Shown piece by piece: positions 555 through 61,380 of a stretch of DNA of 64,000 nt; position 1 is the stretch's first letter; the number at the start of each line of letters is the position of its first letter. The position numbers and the translations under genes are program-made. Source of the DNA: a phage; assembly GCA_024790105.1 (NCBI GenBank), contig GCA_024790105.1_3053.1; one strand, written 5' to 3'. The notes under the pieces were generated by a model. That model had not been told where the DNA came from. It saw only the letters and a list, made by a program, of their open reading frames with translations, and ran no database searches.

Positions 555-1879
555 TTGATTTCCTCTAAATCTTTAGTGTATTCGGTAACTACATCAGTAG
601 TTTTCCAATATTCGTTTTCTTCTTTCTTAGCTTTAGCTTCTTCAGCAAGTTTCTTTGCTTCATCAGAAGTCATGTGAAAAATATTCATTCCAATTAGTTT
701 ATCAACATAAGAAGAATACATATCGATTTTCGAAAGTTCTTCGGTCAGTTCTTTACGAGTTTTACCCTGCACAACGATTTCACCTGAAATTACTTTCTTA
801 ATGAAATGCGCCTTGGCAAAGGCTAAACGAAAAGCGGACTCAGTTTCTTTAATTTTGTTATCAATTCGTTTTTGGACATAAGTTTTACGAACTTCAACAA
901 AGTCTTTAATTAAATCAACTACGTTATCGTAAACTTGTAGTTTTCCTTTCTCATTAATAACAGTAATATTCTGAGAACGACGCTCAATCAACCCGAAGTC
1001 TTTCATAATTTTCGCGTGGCGTTCTTCTTCATTATCGCTCAAAGAATATTCTTTACGGAATTTAACTTTAAAGCCAAAACCATGCTCACCACAAGCATCA
1101 TCCCATGTAATGAAGCCTTTATCTTCAAGTGGGTCTAAGATTTTACTCACATAAGTTTCACGATCATACTTATACGGAATCTCAGTGATATTCATTTGAG
1201 TTCGTGAAGTAAACTTATATGTTCCACGAATTTCATATTGGCCATCAATCTCAACGACTTCACCACGAAATTCTGGGAATTCTACCTTCGGTTTAGTTAC
1301 TTTCTTTCCTTGAAGAGCTTGTAGTACAGCTTTCTTGACAGAAGAAACACTATGAGGAAGAATGTAAGTTGCATAACCAGTTGCAATACCGGAGACACCA
1401 TTAAGAAGAACAGTAGGAATAATAGGCAAATAGAAAGCAGGCGGAATGTGTTCTTTATCTTGATGTACCGGAGCATATTCAGTATCTTTATATACGTTAT
1501 AGAAATTTTTACTTACACGAGCAAAAATATAACGACTTGCTGCTGCTTTTTGGACGGTACGAGAACCAAAGTTTCCTTGGCCATCTAACAAAGGAAAGTT
1601 ATTATTCCAAGTATTAGCCATCAAAGCACCTGCGTCTTGCGCAGAGATTTCACCATGATGATATCCAAGGTCCGCTACACCACCTGCAATAGAAGCGAGT
1701 TTGTGAAACTTATCTTTATTTCCTCGTGCCAAATCAAGAGCTCGAGCAATAACAAATCGTTGAACTGGCTTAAATCCATCAATCATATTTGGGATAGCAC
1801 GATTTTCAACCGTGTACATAGCATAAGCCAATGCTTCATTATCAATGATACTTTTTAAATCGCGATTATTCAGTTGCAT
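551..1879 (-). CDS. 52: DNA topoisomerase II medium subunit gp52 (GyrA/ParC-like)
   Basis: 442-aa ORF, ATG at 1879; catalytic-tyrosine topo II sequence; position between motA and ndd. Confidence 0.95.
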   Translation of the reverse strand: MQLNNRDLKSIIDNEALAYAMYTVENRAIPNMIDGFKPVQRFVIARALDLARGNKDKFHKLASIAGGVADLGYHHGEISAQDAGALMANTWNNNFPLLDGQGNFGSRTVQKAAASRYIFARVSKNFYNVYKDTEYAPVHQDKEHIPPAFYLPIIPTVLLNGVSGIATGYATYILPHSVSSVKKAVLQALQGKKVTKPKVEFPEFRGEVVEIDGQYEIRGTYKFTSRTQMNITEIPYKYDRETYVSKILDPLEDKGFITWDDACGEHGFGFKVKFRKEYSLSDNEEERHAKIMKDFGLIERRSQNITVINEKGKLQVYDNVVDLIKDFVEVRKTYVQKRIDNKIKETESAFRLAFAKAHFIKKVISGEIVVQGKTRKELTEELSKIDMYSSYVDKLIGMNIFHMTSDEAKKLAEEAKAKKEENEYWKTTDVVTEYTKDLEEIK

Positions 1880-8243: not shown

Positions 8244-8273
8244 ATTATACCACATCCTTGTGGTAAAGTAAAC
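8244..8273 (-). promoter_or_regulatory. early promoter (GTTTAC, 15 nt, TGGTATAAT)
   Basis: minus strand GTTTAC 8273-8268 and extended -10 TGGTATAAT at 8252-8244, inside 3' end of gene 60. Confidence 0.55.
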
Positions 8274-8805
8274 TACTGGCTCATCCATTCTTTACGAAGG
8301 TCAGCATTATCTCCCATGAGCATTTCAAAAAGCTCTTTCCAGTTCTCAGGAAGTTTAACAACATCATATACTGGGTTTTGAATCATTTCTTTATATTCAT
8401 CCCGCTGAAGTGAGCCCAATCCCTTGATGTATCGAATACTATGTTTAGGTAGAGCATCTTTAGCACTCTCATATTCAGCGACTGTATAAAACCATTCTTG
8501 TTTTTTACCTACCTGAGCGATGATTACAGGAGTTTTGACGAAGCGAATTCTTCCTTGTTCAAACAGTTCTGGCCAATTACTAAAAAATCCGAGCAGAGAA
8601 GGATAAATAGAACCTAATCCAATAATCTCTTAATTATGAGGTATTTCTATAGATAGCCCGAAGGCTATCCATCGTGATCTGCGTCTGTCATAATAGCGAC
8701 ATTCGCATAGTTCATTGAAGAGGATTTAATAGAACGACGAACATTGTTCTGCAATTTATATTTTTTCATATCAACGCTAGAAGAATCAATTTTTACAAAT
8801 TTCAT
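8273..8805 (-). CDS. 60: topoisomerase II small subunit gp60; join(8273..8617,8668..8805) with 50-nt translational bypass
   Basis: codons 1-46 (MKFVKIDSSS...TDADHDG) end at take-off GGA 8670-8668 followed by UAG; decoding resumes at UUA 8617-8615 after landing GGA 8620-8618; downstream 345-nt segment has no start codon and encodes LGSIYPSLLGFFSNWPELFEQGRIRFVKTP... Confidence 0.9.
8618..8667 (-). other. 50-nt untranslated coding gap (ribosomal hop) inside gene 60
   Basis: sequence GGA UAG CCU UCG GGC UAU CUA UAG AAA UAC CUC AUA AUU AAG AGA UUA UUG GA read directly on minus strand; take-off hairpin with UUCG loop. Confidence 0.9.
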
Positions 8806-9604
8806 TATACACCTCATAGAACTTTTCATCAGGAATCCAACCGCGTTTAAATTCATTAAATGCTCGGCCGAATAATTTTGAATTCACAGTTATATTATTA
8901 ACTGATTTCCATTTAGCAACTCCCGTTCGTTTATAATGATCGGGGTCATATTTCGTGACGTACCATTCATATAAATTTGGTATTAATTTTACAGCCTCTG
9001 GATTTGTCGCTGATTTATTATACCATGGTTTCGCTTTTTCAAGTTCAGCTGCTTTTGCAGTAGCAGCAACAGTATTTCCAATACCAACTAATTTTTCAGT
9101 TTTAATGCGTGGATCATTAACATGAAGACGAAAAACTTCGCCCTTTTCATTTTTAAAGCATGTCATGCCTTTAATTCCAGGAAGCTTAACACCTTTATTA
9201 ACACCGCACCATTCCTTTGGGTTAAATGATCCTTTAATTAATAAGGCGCATTTACCCGATTTAATATTTCTCATTAAAACTTTATCTTTCATAAAGTTTT
9301 TTGACCATTCAGATACTGCTCTTTGATGGTAAATTCTAGCAATTTCATATAATTTACTAGAACGTAAATATTTTTCAGTGTTTAACATTCTATTCATCGC
9401 ATATGCCATTTCACGATTACGATGAATTTTATATAGTAGAAAATGTGCTAAAAAGTGTTCACGAAAAGTCAGTTTCACCAAATTTTCTTTATCATCAGAA
9501 CCTCCCATTGATCTTGGAAGGATATGATGAATTTCACCCTTAAATTTAGAAACGCGGGTTTTACCCCGCACTATTAAGTCATTATAGATTTTTTCGTAAT
9601 TCAC
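8786..9604 (-). CDS. mobA: HNH homing endonuclease (MobA-like) inserted between genes 39 and 60
   Basis: 272-aa ORF with EIHHILPRSMGGSDDKENLV...H motif; ORF-track start at 9604 is GTG without SD, first in-frame ATG at 9508, so true start uncertain. Confidence 0.7.
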   Translation of the reverse strand: MNYEKIYNDLIVRGKTRVSKFKGEIHHILPRSMGGSDDKENLVKLTFREHFLAHFLLYKIHRNREMAYAMNRMLNTEKYLRSSKLYEIARIYHQRAVSEWSKNFMKDKVLMRNIKSGKCALLIKGSFNPKEWCGVNKGVKLPGIKGMTCFKNEKGEVFRLHVNDPRIKTEKLVGIGNTVAATAKAAELEKAKPWYNKSATNPEAVKLIPNLYEWYVTKYDPDHYKRTGVAKWKSVNNITVNSKLFGRAFNEFKRGWIPDEKFYEVYNEICKN

Positions 9605-11132
9605 CTACTGTTATCCATTTACCATTAATCTGTACTTCATCATTTTCATTTACGATAATTGTATCGCCATTTAGCTCGAAAGTAAACCACTCGCCATCTT
9701 CTTTTTCTTCAAACGCTTTTTCACCAAGAACTAATCCAGTGATTGCGCAAATATCAAACAGTTCTTTGTTTTTAAGCATATCAGCATATGACATACCCCA
9801 ACTGTTGAGAACTTTACCACGCAATGGATAACCACCGTGAAGTTCTTTATCACGAACATCAATAAGATATCCGATAGCAGAATCACCCTCAGTCAAGAAA
9901 AGAGTAGTGTCAGCATCTTTACTACAAAGATTCGCTTTGATATGTTTATGAACCTTAGCTTTAGAAGCCTTTTTAGCTGCTTTAGTTTCTGCTGCTTTCT
10001 CTGCCGCCAATTTACGAGCCAAAGCAGCTTCAATAATCGGCATCAGAATTGCTTCATTATTTAGAATAGCGCGTGAAATCTTTTTAGCATCAAGTTGAAT
10101 ATGACTACGAATTTCACCGAATGGAGAAGTCAAACGCTCTTTAGTTTGAGAATCAAATCGCATGTTTTTCATATCACGAACAAACATAACGATAGTCAAA
10201 CATTCTTTAACGCGTGCTTTAGTTACATCAATTTTGAACTTACGTTTGATTTGTGGAATAAGGTCTTCACAAATATCATCCATAACACAGTCAATGTGAT
10301 GGCCACCATTCTTAGTGTGAATGTTATTCACGTAAGTTAATTGACGAAATCCATCCGGTGAACGACCAACCGCAATAGAGCAATTTTCCTGTTCTTGAAC
10401 GATAGCATGCTCATCATACTGGCGTGCATACTTCTTAAAATTGCCCTGAACCTTTTTACCGTTAAAGGTAAATTGAATATCAGGATAAACTACTGCAAGT
10501 GTCTGGAGACGATCTAGTGTAATGTCAAGATAAACTTGAGATAGCTCATTAGTTTCAAATGACATAAAATCAGGAATGAAAGTAACGCGAGTTCCTTTCC
10601 ATTTTCCAGGAATAGTTTCCCATGATTTATTTTCCATGCCGTTTGAACAACGAACTACAATATTATTTTGACCGTCGCCAGTTTCACCGACAAACATCAC
10701 AGAAAAAATGTTAGTTAAACTAGAACCAACACCGTTCATACCACCGGTGACACGTTCTTTATCATCACCAAAGTTACCACCCGCTTTTGGAATAGTCCAC
10801 GCAGCAACAGGACCAGGAATTTCTTCACCGGTAGGTGTTTTAACCATCGCCTGTGGAATACCGCGACCGTTATCTTCAACTGTTACTTGATTATTTTTAA
10901 TAGTAACATTAATTTTATTCGCGAATTTAAACTTAGTACGAATACCTTCATCTACCGAGTTATCGATAATTTCATCAATAAGCTTAACAAGACCAGGTAC
11001 ATACTGAACACTTTCCCATTTACCAAACAGAAAGCGCTCATGCATTTCATTAGCAGAAGAGCCAATATACATGCCGCTACGCTTTTTGATATGTTCAATA
11101 TCGCTCAGAATTTTAATTTCATTCTTAATCAT
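9582..11132 (-). CDS. 39: topoisomerase II large subunit gp39 (GyrB-like ATPase), truncated form completed by gp60
   Basis: 516 aa from ATG 11132 (MIKNEIKILSD...) with GAGGATAA SD; ORF-track start is GTG one codon upstream. Confidence 0.95.
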   Translation of the reverse strand: MIKNEIKILSDIEHIKKRSGMYIGSSANEMHERFLFGKWESVQYVPGLVKLIDEIIDNSVDEGIRTKFKFANKINVTIKNNQVTVEDNGRGIPQAMVKTPTGEEIPGPVAAWTIPKAGGNFGDDKERVTGGMNGVGSSLTNIFSVMFVGETGDGQNNIVVRCSNGMENKSWETIPGKWKGTRVTFIPDFMSFETNELSQVYLDITLDRLQTLAVVYPDIQFTFNGKKVQGNFKKYARQYDEHAIVQEQENCSIAVGRSPDGFRQLTYVNNIHTKNGGHHIDCVMDDICEDLIPQIKRKFKIDVTKARVKECLTIVMFVRDMKNMRFDSQTKERLTSPFGEIRSHIQLDAKKISRAILNNEAILMPIIEAALARKLAAEKAAETKAAKKASKAKVHKHIKANLCSKDADTTLFLTEGDSAIGYLIDVRDKELHGGYPLRGKVLNSWGMSYADMLKNKELFDICAITGLVLGEKAFEEKEDGEWFTFELNGDTIIVNENDEVQINGKWITVGELRKNL

Positions 11133-11201
11133 CACTTATCCTCGTTTGGTTTCGGGAATATTATACTCCGGTAGTCATAAAGCTAAAGGCCCGAAGGCCT
11201 T

Positions 11202-21370: not shown

Positions 21371-21401
21371 AAATGAAAAAAGGACTCCCGAAGGAGTCCT
21401 T
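21371..21401 (-). terminator. rho-independent terminator downstream of soc
   Basis: AAGGACTCC-cgaa-GGAGTCCTT hairpin then U-run on minus strand. Confidence 0.65.
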
Positions 21402-29647: not shown

Positions 29648-30313
29648 TTATAGTAGTGTTCTTGTTCCACGAAATACTTCGAGCATTCTTGCATAAGATT
29701 TATTTGGAAATCCAGCTTCAATTGCTAATTTTTTAAGCTTAATAGCACCGGGTTTTCCAGAGTTTTCCCATATTTCTTTAATCTTTTCAATGTTATCCCA
29801 CATTATTGGGTCACGTTTATGTGATGGTTTATTTCTATTATAACCATATGGATTATTAAGCAAAGCTTCTTTTCGTTTTGCTTTAGTTTCTTCTGACTGC
29901 TTTTTGCCTAGCTGGGCTTTCCGGCAAACATCACTAAATCCAAGATGTTTTGGTTTTCCTTTTTGAGCTTTTGAAATTTTTTCTTTGGTTTCTGATGAAA
30001 CTCTATAACCAATTCTTCTACCACCCTCTCCACCAATTTTTAAATTATAAGTCATAGGATCATTTACCACATCTATTGTTACTAATTCTCTTTCAGCATC
30101 ACGGGCTGATTTAAAATCTTTATAAAACCCAAGAATGCTTAAATTAAAATTTTTCTTACCATACTTTTTCTTGGCTTGTGCTAATAAAGTTCCTGATCCC
30201 ATATAACCATCATTTAAATCATCGGTTGAATGAGTTCCATAGTAAATTTTATTATTAACTAAATTAGTTATAACATAAGTATAATTATATTTCTTTTCTT
30301 TATGTCTTTTCAT
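29648..30313 (-). CDS. segA: GIY-YIG homing endonuclease SegA
   Basis: 221 aa from ATG 30313; YVITNLVNNKIYYGTHS GIY-YIG motif; between uvsX and glycosyltransferase. Confidence 0.8.
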   Translation of the reverse strand: MKRHKEKKYNYTYVITNLVNNKIYYGTHSTDDLNDGYMGSGTLLAQAKKKYGKKNFNLSILGFYKDFKSARDAERELVTIDVVNDPMTYNLKIGGEGGRRIGYRVSSETKEKISKAQKGKPKHLGFSDVCRKAQLGKKQSEETKAKRKEALLNNPYGYNRNKPSHKRDPIMWDNIEKIKEIWENSGKPGAIKLKKLAIEAGFPNKSYARMLEVFRGTRTLL

Positions 30314-30317
30314 GTCA

Positions 30318-31160
30318 TTAATCAACTGCTATTGGATGAATAGCATTAAACTTATGAAATGCTTCTGATTTTTCTTTACGCGAAACACACATGCGAAGAA
30401 CCTTTAATGGCTCGTCTTCTTCACCCAATGATTTTCGTTTTTCAATATTCGATGTTTTCCAACGAGCTTGCTCTGGAAACTCTCTATTGATTTGCTCAAG
30501 CGCTCTATTATGTTTAGAATTACTACGAATTGAACTACACCCACCGGGAGCCTGTGATTTTCCAGATACAACTAGATATTTGAACAAGGCCAAATGCGGA
30601 TAACCTTGATTAATTAAATTGAGAAATGCATACATATCTTCACATAAATCAATTTTTCCATACCCAATTTGTTCTGTCGTAAGTTTTCCGAGGTCATACC
30701 ATGTATTCGTGAATCCATATGAGTTTTCACGATAATTACCCCAAGATGAAGTAATTTTAAAAATTGGTAGACGAGCATGACCGTGATAATACCCGCAATC
30801 CATGGCATCTTCAACGTATTGAATTAATTCATAGAACTGTTCACGAGTTAATTGATTAATTTTATCTACACGCCGTTTATCGTCTCTCTTTCGTATTGAA
30901 CTCATACGAATAGTAGTATCATCATCAATCATCCAGATTCGTTGACCTGCATACATATCAGTAATTGCTTTACGAGTACCGGAAATTCCATTAACATCAT
31001 CAGGAATAGTTACAATTTTAGCTCTAGACCCATAAGCGTCATGATAAGCTTTTTCTTCATGTTCACGCACTACAATATGGGGTTCATAATCAGTCGGAAA
31101 CATATTAAGGGCAGAAACTGCCCCTACACGTTGATAGCTCGGAATTACGAATTGAATCAT
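30318..31160 (-). CDS. GT-A fold (family 2-like) glycosyltransferase at the beta-gt locus
   Basis: 280 aa from ATG 31160; VIPSYQR and IWMIDDD (DxD) motifs; does not resemble T4 beta-gt; ATGA overlap with gene 42. Confidence 0.7.
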   Translation of the reverse strand: MIQFVIPSYQRVGAVSALNMFPTDYEPHIVVREHEEKAYHDAYGSRAKIVTIPDDVNGISGTRKAITDMYAGQRIWMIDDDTTIRMSSIRKRDDKRRVDKINQLTREQFYELIQYVEDAMDCGYYHGHARLPIFKITSSWGNYRENSYGFTNTWYDLGKLTTEQIGYGKIDLCEDMYAFLNLINQGYPHLALFKYLVVSGKSQAPGGCSSIRSNSKHNRALEQINREFPEQARWKTSNIEKRKSLGEEDEPLKVLRMCVSRKEKSEAFHKFNAIHPIAVD

Positions 31161-31897
31161 TTCCACTCACCGTTATAATCTTTTTTCATAATATGAGTTT
31201 CGCCAGTATTCCACCAATGATCAACCAAGTAAAAATGACGAGAATATACATGAAGACTTCCAACATTCCATATAATAGAACCTGCTTTATACTGACGAGT
31301 TGAATCGCCTGCATTCAAATCAGATACTAATTTATCTAATACGTATTTTTGCCATGCATAGTCATTACGATAGCCTGCCCAACAGTCATTGCTTCTCATA
31401 TTAACAACCGCATTGACTTTCTTATCACGAATCAGGTACTGTACTGTATTAGTACACATGAAATCTGACATACCATCTTTATTGTAGTCAAATTGCATGG
31501 ATGGACGAGTATAAATCATGATACCACGTCGAGAATCAGGATTTTGACCAAGTTCAGCTAAACACATATCATACTGGGCATAGTTATCTTCTGACCAGAT
31601 AGCCCAACCATAATTCGAGTTAATTTCACCTTTAGAAGATGCTACCTGCTGCCAAATCTTCGGTGTTTCACCCGGAATATCTTTAACGAACAAGCTCTTA
31701 GATTTATACCATTCAAGTTCACGCTGAATGTATTCATCATTAAGAGCGCCAAAAATAAACGGTTCATCTGCTACAAATGATGCGCCAATAATTTCAATAG
31801 TTTTAACACCAGTTTTATCAACTACGAAATCTTTTTCTTTTAATGCAAGCCCCAAATGAAGACGGATTTCTTCAACTGTCATAGAGTCACTAATCAT
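31157..31897 (-). CDS. 42: dCMP hydroxymethylase gp42
   Basis: 246 aa; ATG 31897 with GAGGT SD. Confidence 0.9.
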   Translation of the reverse strand: MISDSMTVEEIRLHLGLALKEKDFVVDKTGVKTIEIIGASFVADEPFIFGALNDEYIQRELEWYKSKSLFVKDIPGETPKIWQQVASSKGEINSNYGWAIWSEDNYAQYDMCLAELGQNPDSRRGIMIYTRPSMQFDYNKDGMSDFMCTNTVQYLIRDKKVNAVVNMRSNDCWAGYRNDYAWQKYVLDKLVSDLNAGDSTRQYKAGSIIWNVGSLHVYSRHFYLVDHWWNTGETHIMKKDYNGEWK

Positions 31898-37598: not shown

Positions 37599-38285
37599 TT
37601 AAAAATCGTGGGTAGAATCAGCTTCAAGAGCTACTACATAATTCGCGTGTTCACCTTCAAATTTAGCAGCGCCTTGTTTACCTTTTGCCCAAAGCAGAAG
37701 TTTATAATTTCCTGGTTGCATTTTCATATTTGCCATATTGATAATGAAATTAAATGTATTTTCACCATCATAATCACCAAGAGTCAAAGAATATTTAACA
37801 CGGGTAAGAGCAGAATCTTCTACTTTATTAAAACCGTTAATTACGATTTTACCTTCTTTTACCGTGATAGCAATTGTATCAATTTGCAGACCACGAGATA
37901 CACGCAATAGTTGTTGAAGGTCTTCAGCTTTAATTTCAGTAACAACAGATGCTACCGGGAATGGAATTGGTTTATTAGGAGCAACTACTGTACTCGGATC
38001 GGCTGCTGGCCAAAAAATTGTTGAACGAGCATCAGCAATTTTAATATTTCCATCTTCTGACTGGGAAATTTCTGCATCGTCATTAACTAGAGACAGAATA
38101 CCGAGAAAACCGTTCAAATCGTAAATTGCTACATCAAAATCAATAACGTCAGAAATATTTGCTTCCGCATAAGTTGTACCATTAACTGCGCGAGTCATAA
38201 TAAATTGACCAGATTTAAGCATAATGCCAGAGTTAATAGTAGCGAAATTTTTCAAAATATTCAGTGTGTCTTTAGATAATTTCAT
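37599..38285 (-). CDS. 45: sliding clamp gp45
   Basis: 228 aa; ATG 38285 with AGGAAATTGAA SD. Confidence 0.95.
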   Translation of the reverse strand: MKLSKDTLNILKNFATINSGIMLKSGQFIMTRAVNGTTYAEANISDVIDFDVAIYDLNGFLGILSLVNDDAEISQSEDGNIKIADARSTIFWPAADPSTVVAPNKPIPFPVASVVTEIKAEDLQQLLRVSRGLQIDTIAITVKEGKIVINGFNKVEDSALTRVKYSLTLGDYDGENTFNFIINMANMKMQPGNYKLLLWAKGKQGAAKFEGEHANYVVALEADSTHDF

Positions 38286-39169
38286 TTCAATTTCCTATTT
38301 ACATAATAGTTAGACCAGGACCGTACAGCACCCTGATAAGATTCGTCGTTAAACCCATTAGCTACTGCAATTTTACGAAATTTATTATAACTCGGTTTTC
38401 CGTAAGCATGCCATAAAGATTTTAATTCATCTTCATGTTCAATCCAAGTTCCTCTAGCTTTAGATTTTCTAAATTTTGATTTGAATTCCGGTAAATTATT
38501 TCTAACAGTTGCTTGAATTGAAGCTCTCTGTCTTCTTTCAGCATTATTCCATAATTCTTTTTGAGATTTAGAAATTTTTGATCTTACACTTTCTGAATTC
38601 ATTATATCACTAAACTTTTTAGCATAACTACAATCAAGATATTTCAATTTCATCTTATTTGAGAGTTTAAGCTTTTTCTCATCGGTCCAGTGATTCTTCA
38701 TTGAATTAGATATTTTGTATTTTACCTCAGAACTATGTTTGTAACCTTTACGAATACCGACATACTCAGGCGTAATTTCAGATTGCGAAAGCTTTACAAT
38801 TTTTCCAGTTAAAACATTTTTATATGTTCCATATCCTTTAGCACCAATTAAAGTATTTTCATCCGCGTATGCTTTATTAAAATATTTTATATTACTTTTT
38901 GCTTTAACTTTTAATTGAAAAAATCTTTCCAATTTTCTTGGATCTAATATAGTTTCAGCTAAAATTTTGACGGTATATTTAGTGGTTTTAATAAGCTCAA
39001 AATATTCATCACTATAACTAGATGACACGCTTCCAGTATAAATCTTTCCAGCTGAATCAATTATATTTGTTCCATCGAAAATTGCGTTAATTTTTGAACC
39101 TATATAATAACACGGAAAAATATTTTTAGCTTCCCGCTCTGGAAAGCTAATAAGATATACTAAATTCAT
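38282..39169 (-). CDS. Seg-like GIY-YIG homing endonuclease (295 aa) between gene 45 and rpbA
   Basis: VYLISF...YYIGS motif, NUMOD-like repeats, C-terminal domain resembling SegA; ATGA overlaps with both neighbours. Confidence 0.75.
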
Positions 39170-39555
39170 TTATTAAAATCAGCTGCGATTGTTTCGGCAA
39201 CAATTTGTGCAGCAACAATTAGACGTTCATCTGCATTACCGCAATATTCATCTTCTAAACGTTCACCGCATGAAGTCATAATAAATTTAGCAGCGGCGTT
39301 TAGGGATTCTGCAGTATGTTTGCGCATTAGTTCAATCCATTTATTACTTACTTCACGATCGATAGCTTCATAATACGCATGACGAGCAGGTGCAGATTTA
39401 ATTTTGTTCTGAATAACTTCCATTGCGTTATCAGAAAGAGACGAAACCCATGCGCGACGAATTTTATTTTGGTTTTGCGGATTTGAGTCAGAACGCACGT
39501 GTTTTGGCTGAATATCTTTTACATCAACAGTATAATTCACAGTAATTTTAGTCAT
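39166..39555 (-). CDS. rpbA: RNA polymerase-binding protein RpbA-like (129 aa)
   Basis: ATG 39555 with AAAGGTG SD; length and position. Confidence 0.7.
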
Positions 39556-39807: not shown

Positions 39808-40524
39808 ATGAATTATAAACTAATTTATGAAAAGTTAATATCTAATGCTAAATCTCGAAAACTTGATTGCTATACTGAATCTCATCACATTATACCGCGC
39901 TGTTTAAATGGAAGTGATGATGCTTCAAACTTAGTAGATTTAACACCAGAAGAGCACTATGTAGCTCATCAACTTTTAGTAAAAATTTATCCTTCTGAAC
40001 CAAAATTAGTCTATGCTGCTAACATGATGACAGTTTCTACGAAATACGCTAAACGCAACAATAAAACTTTCGGTTGGATTCGTCGTAAACTCTGGGAAAT
40101 AGAAAAGAACAAAGAATTCTCCCAGGAGACACGAAAGAAAATGTCTGATGCAGTAGCTAATAAAGCAAGACTAACTTGTCCTCATTGCGGTAAGTCTGGA
40201 TTAAGCGGGAATATGAATCGTTGGCATTTTGATAACTGCCCAAATCACCCTAATCCTAAAGTTAGACCACCAATGTCTAAAGAACACAGAAATAATATCT
40301 CAAACGGGCTTAAAGCAATCGTTCTTGAAGAAACATCCTGCGAATTCTGCGGAATGATAGGCAAGAAATGCGTTATCGCAGCGCATAGAAATTTCTGCAA
40401 GAAAAATCCAAATGGACGCAAGAAAACTGAAAAGACTGGTACTTGCGTCCATTGCGGTAAAGTTACCACTTTCGGAAATTTATCAAGGTGGCATAATGAT
40501 AACTGTAAATATAAACCTAGCTAA
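39808..40524 (+). CDS. Mob-family HNH homing endonuclease (238 aa) on plus strand
   Basis: ATG 39808 with AAGGAT SD; ESHHIIPRCLNGSDDASNLV...H motif similar to MobA N-terminus; duplicated CxxC...WHxDNC modules. Confidence 0.8.
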   Translation: MNYKLIYEKLISNAKSRKLDCYTESHHIIPRCLNGSDDASNLVDLTPEEHYVAHQLLVKIYPSEPKLVYAANMMTVSTKYAKRNNKTFGWIRRKLWEIEKNKEFSQETRKKMSDAVANKARLTCPHCGKSGLSGNMNRWHFDNCPNHPNPKVRPPMSKEHRNNISNGLKAIVLEETSCEFCGMIGKKCVIAAHRNFCKKNPNGRKKTEKTGTCVHCGKVTTFGNLSRWHNDNCKYKPS

Positions 40525-49391: not shown

Positions 49392-49862
49392 TTAATCATG
49401 TTTCCACACCCCATCGGTATTTGACCAAAGTCGCTGATTATCTGATCCTCGCCACAGCTTTTTAGTCGGAAGATTTTTCTCATACTTCCCATCAATAATA
49501 ACATCAACATATTTAAGCATTTCTAGTTGTTTAATATCCTCAAACTTATATCCTGTCCACAACCAAATGCTTTTATTTGGATAAAGATTTTTTACTGTTT
49601 GAACAATGCAATGAATAACATCTCGGTTATCAGGATAGAGAGGGTCTCCTCCAGTTATAGTCAATCCTTCTATATAATCATTATTCAAACATTCAATTAA
49701 TTGTTCCAGTGTTTCACCAGTGAATGGAACGCCATTTCTAGCATTCCATGTTGATTTATTATAACACCCTTCGCATTTATGCAAACAACCAGTAACGAAA
49801 AGAACTGTCCTGCATCCAGGACCATTAACAAAGCAGCACGGGTATATTCTGTCATAATTCAT
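49392..49862 (-). CDS. nrdG: anaerobic ribonucleotide reductase activating protein NrdG (radical SAM)
   Basis: 156 aa; CLHKCEGC motif; ATG 49862. Confidence 0.9.
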   Translation of the reverse strand: MNYDRIYPCCFVNGPGCRTVLFVTGCLHKCEGCYNKSTWNARNGVPFTGETLEQLIECLNNDYIEGLTITGGDPLYPDNRDVIHCIVQTVKNLYPNKSIWLWTGYKFEDIKQLEMLKYVDVIIDGKYEKNLPTKKLWRGSDNQRLWSNTDGVWKHD

Positions 49863-50691
49863 TTATATATTTCCAATTATAGCCTTCAACACTTTTACGT
49901 TCGCCATTTAAACATTTTAAAATATTTCCTTTGCTAGAAATATTAAAATATTTTGCTGCGTCTGGTATATAATTAAATGTTTTTAAAAGAACACCATCTT
50001 TATATGCGCCAAATAAATTAAGAGTATATTTTTCTCGAAGACGCTGATGTTTCCTTTTCATAACCTCAGGATTTGCATACGCCAACTTCAATGAATTTCT
50101 GTGTTTTTCTTTTACTTCAGGTTTTTGCATTGCTAACTTAGTTAGCCTGGAAATTTTATTTCTAACTTCGTCAGTTTTCATTGCATTTGACAAATTTAAT
50201 AAAGTTTTATTTCTAACTTCAGGTTTTTGCATTGCTAACTTAGTTAGTTCTCTATGTCTTTTTCTAAAATCGTCATCCTTCCATATATTTTTCGATAATT
50301 TTGACATAGAGCGGTGAAATAATTCCTTTTCACTGGAATACAATTTAAAAATTTCATCCAATTCATCCGCATTAAATCTATCGGTATTCGAGTTTATCAT
50401 TCTATGAAAGGCATAACACATTTTACTATTGCTTGTTTTAGCTAAATAGTAATGAGCTAACGCATGGTCATAATATGACAAATTAACAATATTCCATTTA
50501 TCTGTTTTATATTCAGGAAATATAGATTTGGGAAGCACGTGATGTGCTTCCGTTTTTCCTTTTATTTTAGGATTATTATAATTTTTTGTTATCAAATCAA
50601 CATATGACAATAGTAAATCATTATTTTCTTCAAATATTAAAGATAATTTATCATTCACAAAATCGCAAGGATAAAATCTATCATAATTCAT
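49852..50691 (-). CDS. HNH homing endonuclease (MobC-like) between nrdD and nrdG
   Basis: 279 aa; EAHHVLPKS...DHALAH motif; N-terminus MNYDRFYPCDFVN duplicates nrdG N-terminus. Confidence 0.8.
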   Translation of the reverse strand: MNYDRFYPCDFVNDKLSLIFEENNDLLLSYVDLITKNYNNPKIKGKTEAHHVLPKSIFPEYKTDKWNIVNLSYYDHALAHYYLAKTSNSKMCYAFHRMINSNTDRFNADELDEIFKLYSSEKELFHRSMSKLSKNIWKDDDFRKRHRELTKLAMQKPEVRNKTLLNLSNAMKTDEVRNKISRLTKLAMQKPEVKEKHRNSLKLAYANPEVMKRKHQRLREKYTLNLFGAYKDGVLLKTFNYIPDAAKYFNISSKGNILKCLNGERKSVEGYNWKYINEL

Positions 50692-50703: not shown

Positions 50704-53566
50704 CTATGCATGTTTTACTCGTTTTACCATTTCTTTCATTTTACCTAAATTCCATGGGACAACGCTAGGAGTTCCAAGATATCCGCATGTTCTTCTTATT
50801 GTGTTCATCTTTTTAGGATCAGTTTCTCCACAAATAGAACAAACAAATCCGTTTTCAGTAGGAGTCATTTCATGGGTACTTCCACATGTAAAACATTTAT
50901 CTACTGGCATGTTAACACCAAAATAATCTAAATGTTGTACAGCATAATCCCATACAGCCTCAAGACCTTTTAGGTTATTTTTCATATCAGGAAGTTCAAC
51001 ATAAGAAATGTGACCACCTGTCGCAATGAAATGATATGGCGCTTCACGAGAAATCTTTTCAAACGGAGTAATATTTTCTTCTACTGAAACATGGAAACTG
51101 TTAGTGTACCAGCCTTTATCGGTAACATCCTTTACACTTCCATATTTTTCTGTATCAAGTTTACAGAAGCGATAACAAAGGTTTTCAGCAGGAGTCGAAT
51201 ATAAACTAAAAGCAAATCCAGTTCTTTCAGTCCACTGTTTAAGATGAGCATTCATTTTAGTTAAAATTTCCTGTCCAATATCACGACCGACAAGAATATT
51301 CAATTCATGAATACCAATGTATCCTAGGGACACTGAACTTCTACCATTTTTAAATAACTCAATTATATCGTCATCAGGTTTAAGACGAACCCCGAATGCA
51401 CCTTCTTGGTAAAGAATAGGAGCAACAGTCGCTTTAACTCCTTTTAAGGAACTAATTCTACACATCAAAGCTTCAAAACACAGATCCATTCGTTCATTGA
51501 ATAATTCAGTAAATTTCTGTTCATTGAACTGTGTTCCAATATAAGAATCTAACGCAATACGAGGAAGATTCAGTGTTACAACACCAAGATTATTACGTCC
51601 ATCAAGAATTTCATTACCAGTCGAATCTTTCCATACGCTCAAGAAACTACGGCAACCCATTGGAGAAACAGGAACAGATGAACCAGTGATAGCTTTATTG
51701 TTCTTAGCTGAAATAATATCAGGATACATCCTTTTGCTTGCACACTCTAGAGCAAGCTGTTTAATATCATAGTTCGGATCGTCTTTGTAAAGATTAACGC
51801 CTTCTTCGACGAACATAACAAGCTTAGGGAAAATAGGAGTTATCCCATCACGACCGAGACCTTTAATACGATTTTTCAGAATTGCTTTCTGAATCATTCG
51901 TTCAGTCCAGTCAGTTCCTGTACCAAATGTAATTGTTACAAAAGGTGTTTGTCCGTTTGAACTGAAAAGTGTATTTACTTCATCATTATATTCAGCATGA
52001 GTCGCAAATTCATGCCCGTTTATATGAAACGACAAAATTTGGATAGTCCATAGATATGCAACGTTCTTTTATAGTGCTAGGATGAAAATTTAGCGCTTTA
52101 GCTGCTTCTATATAAGACGTATACTTAATACCGTCAACAACCACATATTCAGGAACTTTATGAATAGTAGTCTTAATACTCAAAACAAGAGGATGAGTTT
52201 CGACTTCACTTTCAGTGCAATTTAAATATTCCGCTGCTTTTTTAAAACTTCTAAAAGTTTTATTTTTAAGCTTTATCGATACTTGTTTTTTACTTTTTCG
52301 ACTATTGATATTATTTTGCACATGTTCCTTAGATCTTCTGTTTTTAGCATAATATTCAGCCACAGAAGATTTTATATTGTTTTTATGAGATTCGGATAAC
52401 ACTTTACCCTTATGAGCATCTCTTAATTTTTGAATATGTTCTTCAGTATCCGGATGCTTATAAAACTTTTTACCGCCTATGGATTTATTTAAACATTTTT
52501 TGCTATAAAAATATTTACGTATGACCTCTTCTTCATGTTTTAATGCATCTTTATAACTATCAAATGTTTTTAAAATTATCCATTTAGTAGGTGTATCAGT
52601 TTTTAAGCGTTCATTTATATACTTAGATGACGTTGTGTAAGTTTTCCAGTTTGTGGGCTTGTTTTTAACTGTTCTAAATTTTTTATAACCGATATAAATG
52701 TCGCCATTAGAAAACTTAACTAAGTATGTAAATGCGTCTTTATCTTTTATTTTAGTACAACGTCTTTTTATCCATTTCATTGTTTCACCTCGTATTCATA
52801 AGATAATCTTATTTATACAAGATGACTGCTGCATGTCGCCATGCAGATTAGACTATATCTTCATCTTTCGATGCCGGCCGTTTCGAATAGCATTAGCTTC
52901 TATTCTACACCGCTACATTCATCACGGTTAGTCGTTAGGCATTTAGTTCAAAAGAACATTTAGCACGGGATTGTCTACTAGAGAGGTTCCCCGTTTAGAC
53001 CGGTTTTACATGAGCCTGAATTAAATTAACTCATACGCCTGGAATGCATCGTATACGTCTTTTTCTGTTTTAGATTGAGCATAATTCAACGCATCAGCGA
53101 TTTGCCATTTTTCTGCATCTTCAATATGTTTTGCATAGGTGCGTTTAACATAAGGAGAAAGTACTTTATCTACATTAGCAAAAGTCGTTCCGCCGTATTG
53201 GTGAGAAGCAACCTGTGCAGTAATTTGCGCCATAATTGCAGTAGCAACGCCAATTGATTTAGGAGTTTCAATCTGCGCATTACCAAGCTTAAATCCGTTC
53301 TCAAGCATTCCTTTTAAATCTACTAAACAGCAATTAGTAAAAGGAAGAGCAGGGGAATAATCAATATCGTGCACGTGAATAATTCCGCTTTCATGCGCTT
53401 TCATAATAAAAGACGGGACCATATTTTTGGCAATGTGTTTAGACACAATACCAGCCATAAGGTCCCGTTGAGTTGGAAAAACACGAGAATCTTTATTAGC
53501 ATTCTCGTTTAAAAGGTCTTTATTAGTTTTATGAATCAATCCTTCAATTTCTTTTTCAATTGTCAT
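50704..53566 (-). CDS. nrdD: anaerobic ribonucleotide reductase NrdD, interrupted by a group I intron; inferred join(50704..51983,53029..53566)
   Basis: exon 1 ORF from ATG 53566 and exon 2 ORF ending in glycyl-radical RRTCGYLG and Zn ribbon; splice coordinates inferred from U/G boundary rule assuming a 605-aa product. Confidence 0.8.
51984..53028 (-). mobile_element. group I intron (sunY/nrdD type) with 3'-located endonuclease ORF; boundaries approximate
   Basis: ribozyme core CUAAACGGGGAACCUCUCUAGUAGACAAUCCCGUGCUAAAU...AAAUGCCUAACGACUA...GAGAUAUAGUCU...CUGCAUGGCGACAUGCAGC read at 52781-53020. Confidence 0.7.
52010..52780 (-). CDS. intron-encoded GIY-YIG-type homing endonuclease (256 aa)
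   Basis: ATG 52780 with GAGGTGAAACA SD; TYLVKFSNGDIYIGY motif and NUMOD-like repeats. Confidence 0.75.
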   Translation of the reverse strand: MKWIKRRCTKIKDKDAFTYLVKFSNGDIYIGYKKFRTVKNKPTNWKTYTTSSKYINERLKTDTPTKWIILKTFDSYKDALKHEEEVIRKYFYSKKCLNKSIGGKKFYKHPDTEEHIQKLRDAHKGKVLSESHKNNIKSSVAEYYAKNRRSKEHVQNNINSRKSKKQVSIKLKNKTFRSFKKAAEYLNCTESEVETHPLVLSIKTTIHKVPEYVVVDGIKYTSYIEAAKALNFHPSTIKERCISMDYPNFVVSYKRA

Positions 53567-59700: not shown

Positions 59701-59731
59701 TTGAAATAAAAAAGGGAGCCCGAAGGCTCCC
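59701..59731 (-). terminator. rho-independent terminator
   Basis: GGGAGCC-cgaa-GGCTCCC hairpin plus U-run on minus strand. Confidence 0.6.
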
Positions 59732-61353: not shown

Positions 61354-61380
61354 AATGAAAAAAGTCTCCCGAAGGAGACT
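61354..61380 (-). terminator. rho-independent terminator
   Basis: AGTCTCC-cgaa-GGAGACT hairpin plus U-run on minus strand. Confidence 0.6.

Follow-up and report, generated by a model that had tools for sequence, protein, structure and literature searches.

We found that the interrupted reading frame of a topoisomerase gene in a phage DNA stretch of 64,000 nucleotides (hereafter the window) is almost certainly the programmed translational bypass of phage T4 gene 60, which forms the 3' terminus of a MobA homing-endonuclease element, by which the gene for a GyrB-like topoisomerase II subunit is split. Judged by its sequence, the window belongs to a T4-like phage (Tequatrovirus): it was about 95% identical over 25 kb to Tequatrovirus phages such as HY03, and the annotated phage collection contained no record identical to it. 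Over the 1.5-kb region of genes 39, mobA and 60, which was matched by 566 phage records, identity reached 98.1% with several T4 records. The bypass gene occupied the same genomic position in the window and in T4, between mobA and rIIA.1. We infer that bypassing takes place in the window phage from its sequence identity to T4, in which the mechanism was established experimentally; the sequence itself gave no argument to the contrary. The gene 60 bypass in the window is already known: it is the canonical T4 form, carried by a mobile element that is itself known, in a T4-like genome that is new, and nothing at the site departs from the published description.

Gene 60 is read on the minus strand in two frames separated by a coding gap. 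Its start ATG (8805..8803) is preceded by GAGG and lies seven bases after it. The first frame comprises codons 1-46 (8668..8805, minus), and its translation, MKFVKIDSSSVDMKKYKLQNNVRRSIKSSSMNYANVAIMTDADHDG, is identical to that of T4; these codons are an N-terminal extension encoded by the element, with a region homologous to the replaced topoisomerase segment. Codons 14-30 (8716..8766, minus) correspond to the nascent-peptide bypass signal, the KYKLQNNVRRSIKSSSS region, read here as KYKLQNNVRRSIKSSS plus codon 30 and identical in sequence to T4, where the signal acts in the exit tunnel (bioRxiv 10.1101/2022.08.31.505936; PMC5462505). The conserved signal residues Y16, Q19, V22, R24, Y33, M39 and T40 were all present in the first open reading frame (ORF) of the window.

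The last codon of the first frame is the take-off codon GGA (Gly46; 8668..8670, minus), and UAG stands directly after it (8665..8667, minus). Counted from this UAG, the untranslated gap, which T4 records mark as a bypass region, is 50 nt long (8618..8667, minus), and its last three bases are the landing codon GGA (8618..8620, minus). The original prediction had described this arrangement from the letters of the sequence, and we found it unchanged: in the direction of reading, codon 46 and the UAG lie at 8670..8668 and 8667..8665, and the segment ending in the second GGA at exactly 8667..8618. No GGA besides the landing codon lies in the gap, and the one further cognate triplet, a GGG at gap positions 9-11, falls within the hairpin described below. 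Take-off and landing GGA do not overlap, and the same peptidyl-tRNA can read both. An SD-like GAG (8627..8629, minus), whose function is known from the literature, was read from the sequence 6 nt upstream of the landing codon, and the order at the landing site is GAG, AUUAUU and GGA in an AU-rich setting. Decoding would resume at UUA (8617), where the second frame begins (8273..8617, minus). Its 345 nt hold 114 sense codons, numbered 47-160, and a UAG stop at 8275..8273; the translation, LGSIYPSLLGFF...KEWMSQ, matches Pfam TOPRIM_C and continues T2 gp39. This distal frame is offset by two bases from the first frame. Stops were found in all three frames of the gap, namely UAG at gap positions 1 and 19 and UAA at positions 32 and 36, and since every gap frame contains one, neither read-through nor a single frameshift can join the two halves of gene 60.

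The same layout could be taken for a gene that has been broken or split again, with a 46-aa peptide followed either by a separately initiated distal polypeptide or by a pseudogene that is not made, and many public annotations do give two CDSs at this locus or call one of them a hypothetical protein. The features of the distal frame argue against this reading. The original prediction had the 345-nt distal segment (8617..8273) lacking a start codon, which is correct with one refinement: the frame is shut upstream by a UAA at 8632, 12 nt before the landing codon, and its first ATG, GTG or TTG is a TTG at 8419, 66 codons in. When the distal frame was compared with T4, 19 codons differed, 15 of them synonymously and four non-synonymously, indicating that this frame is under purifying selection at the protein level. 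A split at the gap would also part the DxDxD metal-binding motif from the remaining Toprim fold, and it would leave unexplained why the codons for take-off and landing match in seven cassette lineages, the window and the six diverged ones described below. We therefore regard a broken or newly split gene as very improbable.

Comparison with an uninterrupted relative supports reading the two halves as one protein. The fused gp60 aligned with residues 472-605 of the uninterrupted 605-aa T2 gp39 with 0 gaps, 93% identity and E = 2e-93, and the alignment passes straight through the junction ...IMTDADHDG-LGSIYPS... (the hyphen marks the joint). The continuous reading of the two halves, on which the original prediction had leaned, is thus borne out. 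The fused gp60 is predicted to have 160 aa and 18.66 kDa, in agreement with the roughly 18 kDa anticipated for the product. The description of the product as the small subunit of the topoisomerase needs qualification: gp60 is indeed the smallest topoisomerase polypeptide, yet it is homologous to the C-terminal portion of the large, GyrB-like subunit.

Alignment with T4 gene 60 had been named as a check in the original prediction, and the stretch of 188 nt that opens with the gene 60 ATG and closes with the landing codon proved to be 100% identical. Identity to T4 (NC_000866) spans from upstream of the gene 60 ATG to 51 nt past the landing codon, and it covers the take-off GGA, the UAG, the UUCG hairpin, the GAG, the landing GGA and the nascent-peptide signal. 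At the homologous position, the T4 and T4T records carry a two-piece joined CDS for gene 60 and a misc_feature, 'non-coding translational bypass region in mRNA', that spans the same 50 nt. The T4-identical cassette and the annotation of the T4 record support the assignment to the classic T4 gene 60 hop. From 52 nt downstream of the landing codon onward, the window and T4 differ in distal gene 60. These differences could change the downstream stem-loop and the efficiency of bypassing; this stem-loop is poorly conserved in published comparisons (bioRxiv 10.1101/2022.08.31.505936).

The take-off site is embedded in a stem-loop, AUGGAUAGCC-UUCG-GGCUAUCUAU (8649..8672, minus), with 10 bp and -13.6 kcal/mol, which was present in both the minimum free energy (MFE) and centroid folds. 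Its core, GAUAGCC-UUCG-GGCUAUC (8669..8652), has a 7-bp stem and -9.9 kcal/mol; the take-off codon sits within the 5' arm of the stem, and a stable UUCG tetraloop forms the cap. The C(UUCG)G hairpin with the take-off site had originally been placed at 8652-8669 on the plus strand; the hairpin is there, and both it and the gene are read on the minus strand. The 19-nt sequence GGAUAGCCUUCGGGCUAUC occurred once in the window, with 0 occurrences expected even when 3 mismatches were allowed. The uniqueness of this motif, the 188-nt identity to T4 and the gapless alignment of the fused protein together demonstrate that the take-off arrangement is not due to chance. The folding energy of the 91-nt surroundings was not unusual when compared with shuffled sequences (z = -1.29), and weight is carried only by the local hairpin and its covariation, not by the folding energy of the wider context. 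Covariation was examined in six 24-mers aligned by hand, a small set made up of the window and the five diverged cassettes that keep the hairpin. In these, 96.7% of take-off stem cells were paired, compared with 21-41% when the partners were slid, and compensatory changes were found in four stem pairs. One of these four involves the third base of the take-off codon and occurs as A-U, G-C and U-A. Given the size of the set and its alignment by hand, the covariation is to be taken as supportive rather than statistically rigorous. Aside from the copy of CC(UUCG)GG that lies inside gene 60 (8657..8664), the transcribed strand of the window contains such tetraloop motifs at 11190..11197, 21387..21394, 59719..59726 and 61368..61375, all minus; the pattern CYTTCGRG had 7 matches in the window against 3.45 expected, which is not significant.

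The cassette and its surroundings recur in other phages. Among phage records, 78 carry the 46-aa N-terminal extension of gene 60, and about 42 of these belong to the T4 clade; a 171-nt query that runs across the gap was covered to at least 80% by 59 records. These T4-clade counts were made in the annotated phage collection, which was used in place of a viral-contig collection. In the latter, three aligned MobA proteins, used as the query, hit little else than generic HNH endonucleases, matched through the N-terminal domain, and the only true cassette was that of Proteus phage Pm5461; a pattern scan of the viral contigs for MTDAD codons, UAG and the CC(UUCG)GG hairpin likewise yielded only Pm5461, the collection evidently being without T4-clade genomes. 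In many public phage records, gene 60 is annotated as two separate CDSs, or its first ORF as 'hypothetical protein', and not as one joined gene; this split annotation is a systematic error at the locus. A weak match to the N-terminal extension of gene 60 (37% identity, E = 8e-3) was also seen at about 1501..1745 of Pseudoalteromonas phage vB_Psh_XG4 (PP712099). It runs directly into ...DPDG... topoisomerase sequence with no gap, and the extension could have been kept in this lineage while the bypass cassette was lost or never present.

Six diverged lineages were sampled, with one cassette read for each. The codon pair, take-off first and landing second, is GGG and GGA in Proteus phage Pm5461 (gap 51 nt), GGU and GGC in Salmonella phage S16 (gap 48 nt), and GGU and GGU in Shewanella phage Thanatos-1, with UAG as the next codon in each. 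Two cassettes take off one codon earlier, at Asp45, and again have UAG next: Acinetobacter phage AC4 with GAU and GAC (gap 43 nt), and Aeromonas phage AS-gz with GAC and GAC (gap 17 nt). In Acinetobacter phage Stupor, with GGU and GGC, the rare codon AGG takes the place of the stop. Take-off and landing codons could be read by one tRNA in all six diverged cassettes, and a covarying hairpin like that of the window is kept in five of them. This distribution bears on whether the 50 nt could be an artefact of sequencing or assembly in the window, for which we found nothing specific in favour. The N-terminal extension before the gap is present in the roughly 42 T4-clade genomes, which were sequenced independently, the 59 records extend across the gap itself, and in other phage genera we read diverged forms of the gap directly. 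The probability of an artefact is practically negligible.

Removal of the 50 nt from the RNA by splicing or editing, followed by ordinary translation of a continuous message, would give the same protein. The precise joining of the gene 60 halves is compatible with such a process, and DNA alone cannot tell removal at the RNA level from bypassing. However, Rfam, introns included, gave 0 matches at gathering thresholds anywhere in the window, so that no RNA family, intron or other, explains the gap; a tRNA scan of the window found none. To our knowledge, 50 nt is far shorter than any self-splicing intron, which further counts against splicing or editing. The conserved elements of the cassette, namely matched codons, a stop, an SD-like GAG and a nascent-peptide signal, are signals of translation and not of splicing. 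Moreover, the 50 nt of the identical T4 sequence are transcribed into mRNA and left untranslated, with about half of the ribosomes bypassing them, according to a review (PMC3014915), and bypassing was reproduced in vitro on a defined gene 60 mRNA with E. coli ribosomes (PMC5462505). We consider removal at the RNA level extremely unlikely.

The steps by which bypassing would proceed in the window phage are those described in the literature for the identical T4 sequence. Ribosomes would translate codons 1-46, and the peptidyl-tRNA(Gly) would then come off GGA while remaining in the P site. At take-off in T4, the nascent peptide anchors the peptidyl-tRNA(Gly) and keeps the peptidyl transferase centre inactive, and a short hairpin in the A site shields the UAG from RF1 and from read-through; the protection from RF1 was seen in cryo-EM of the take-off complex (PMC5462505). 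The ribosome would slide ahead across the 50 nt, assisted by refolding of the mRNA behind it; the sliding is driven by EF-G with GTP, as stated in a published study (PMC6551183). Decoding would restart at UUA and give a single gp60 of 160 aa and 18.7 kDa with roughly 50% efficiency. At the level of DNA, the 50-nt insert would shield the genome that bears the element from cleavage by its own MobA (bioRxiv 10.1101/2022.08.31.505936). It has also been considered whether the phage makes use of incomplete bypassing (about 50% in T4), through the gp60:gp39 ratio or through a 46-residue stop peptide with a function of its own, or whether the changes in distal gene 60 alter the efficiency; we found no positive sign of either, and we judge this improbable.

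The bypass cassette forms one end of the MobA mobile element, which was absent from the original prediction. By comparison with T2 and insert-free phages, the element is 1106 nt long (8609..9714, minus) and consists, in order, of a C-terminal extension of gp39, mobA, the N-terminal extension of gene 60, the bypass cassette and, past the landing codon, a further 9 nt. After 9715 the window ceases to match uninterrupted T2 gene 39, and the match returns at 8608; the right boundary was defined as the point at which BLAST identity to insert-free phages resumes, 8608. Two other ways of placing this boundary were dropped: a global MAFFT alignment of the window with T2 placed only the left breakpoint correctly, and a k-mer approach initially halted within the homologous replacement region. 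Gene 39 (9582..11132, minus) encodes the N-terminal portion of the large, GyrB-like subunit of topoisomerase II, with Pfam HATPase_c and DNA_gyraseB matches; by analogy with T4 and T2, the ATG that lies one codon into the GTG ORF as listed was taken as its start. Residues 2-474 of the gene 39 ORF are 99% identical to residues 1-473 of T2 gp39, at which point the similarity ends, and the product finishes with a C-terminal extension of about 43 aa supplied by the inserted element.

The mobA gene (8786..9604, minus) is an intact ORF of 272 aa with a GTG start, which was assigned to the HNH family of homing endonucleases (phrog_655, E = 3e-57; weak Pfam HNH match). It shares bases with the end of gene 39 and with the start of gene 60, and its 819 nt equal the length of the annotated mobA of T4T. 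MobA shares 56% and 51% identity with endonucleases of Proteus and Acinetobacter phages, respectively. One base of the element, at 9267, differs from T4T (99.9% identity), whereas the flanks of the element are 96.2% (9715..10000, gene 39) and 94.2% (8273..8608, distal gene 60) identical; the flank mismatches nearest to the element lie at 9726 and 8566. At the level of sequence, this contrast between element and flanks fits recent horizontal transfer of a mobile cassette with short co-conversion tracts. With mobA intact, the homing element of the window phage may still be active. MobA endonuclease activity and homing have been demonstrated for related phages, and it has been described how the MobA element is built and how its signals are conserved (bioRxiv 10.1101/2022.08.31.505936); homing experiments by Bonocora et al. 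are cited in the same work by Manning and Atkins 2022 (bioRxiv 10.1101/2022.08.31.505936).

The window is rich in homing-endonuclease-like elements. Two more ORFs of MobA's family were found at 38282..39169 (minus; phrog_655, E = 4e-33) and 39808..40524 (plus; phrog_655, E = 9e-69), neither with a Pfam match. They flank a 129-aa ORF at 39166..39555, which we take to be rpbA, and the ORF at 39808..40524 is among the few sizeable plus-strand ORFs in a region where transcription is almost wholly minus. Further free-standing homing-endonuclease-like ORFs lie at 29648..30325, 52010..52780 and 49852..50691, all minus; two of the three are of GIY-YIG/Seg type with NUMOD motifs, and one has a weak I-HmuI-like NUMOD match. 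Adjoining the Seg-like gene, a 282-aa ORF (30318..31166, minus) encodes a TET-associated glycosyltransferase (TAGT) domain, where the corresponding position of T4 is presumably occupied by beta-glucosyltransferase. The TAGT ORF suggests a T2/T6-like set of DNA glucosylation genes.

As the case on which the concept of programmed translational bypassing was founded, the gene 60 hop also serves as a major model of the way in which the ribosome keeps or loses its grip on mRNA. Its recurrence in another T4-like phage adds no new biology; the value of the present case is that the recoding site can be recognised from raw sequence, at a locus that marks a spot where automatic annotation commonly fails. 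In addition, the intact mobA and the sharp contrast in identity between element and flanks make the window a clean natural case of a homing cassette that was shared recently.

Among known systems, T4 itself is the closest to the window, as the whole recoding cassette is equal base for base (NC_000866, HM137666). The two differ in the distal part of gene 60, where the window has four amino-acid changes and reads LQRDEYKE in place of LEKSEYRE in T4. In the window, as in T4T, mobA is an intact 272-aa ORF, whereas NC_000866 annotates a defective mobA and an ORF 60.1. The element resembles the clade 1 MobA element of E. coli phages (Manning and Atkins 2022) in its length of 1106 nt, in its insertion into the Toprim region of the large subunit gene, in the gp39 tail of about 43 aa and the 46-aa N-terminal extension of gp60, in the 9 nt past the landing codon and in the overlap of mobA with both neighbours. 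There is no material difference from this element, the published length of which is 1097-1106 nt, with clade 1 extending 9 nt past the cassette (bioRxiv 10.1101/2022.08.31.505936); from T4T the window differs by the one base at 9267.

The diverged cassettes share with the window the order of parts, in which gene 39 is followed by an endonuclease, by an ORF of about 45 codons, by a gap and by the remainder of the gene, and all except that of Aeromonas have a stable tetraloop hairpin. An SD-like triplet upstream of the landing codon was seen in the Proteus and Salmonella cassettes and is reported for most clades (bioRxiv 10.1101/2022.08.31.505936). They differ from the window in their codon pairs and gap lengths, the window having the canonical T4 form, and all six variants were already described in the 2022 preprint (bioRxiv 10.1101/2022.08.31.505936). 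A more distant likeness is found in the mitochondrial 'byp' elements of the yeast Magnusiomyces capitatus, in which inserts of 27-55 nt are skipped between matched take-off and landing codons (bioRxiv 10.1101/2022.08.31.505936). The 'byp' elements come from a sequence family unrelated to the gene 60 cassette, have a sense codon without a tRNA, rather than a stop, directly after take-off, are present in many copies per genome and depend on features specific to those mitochondria.
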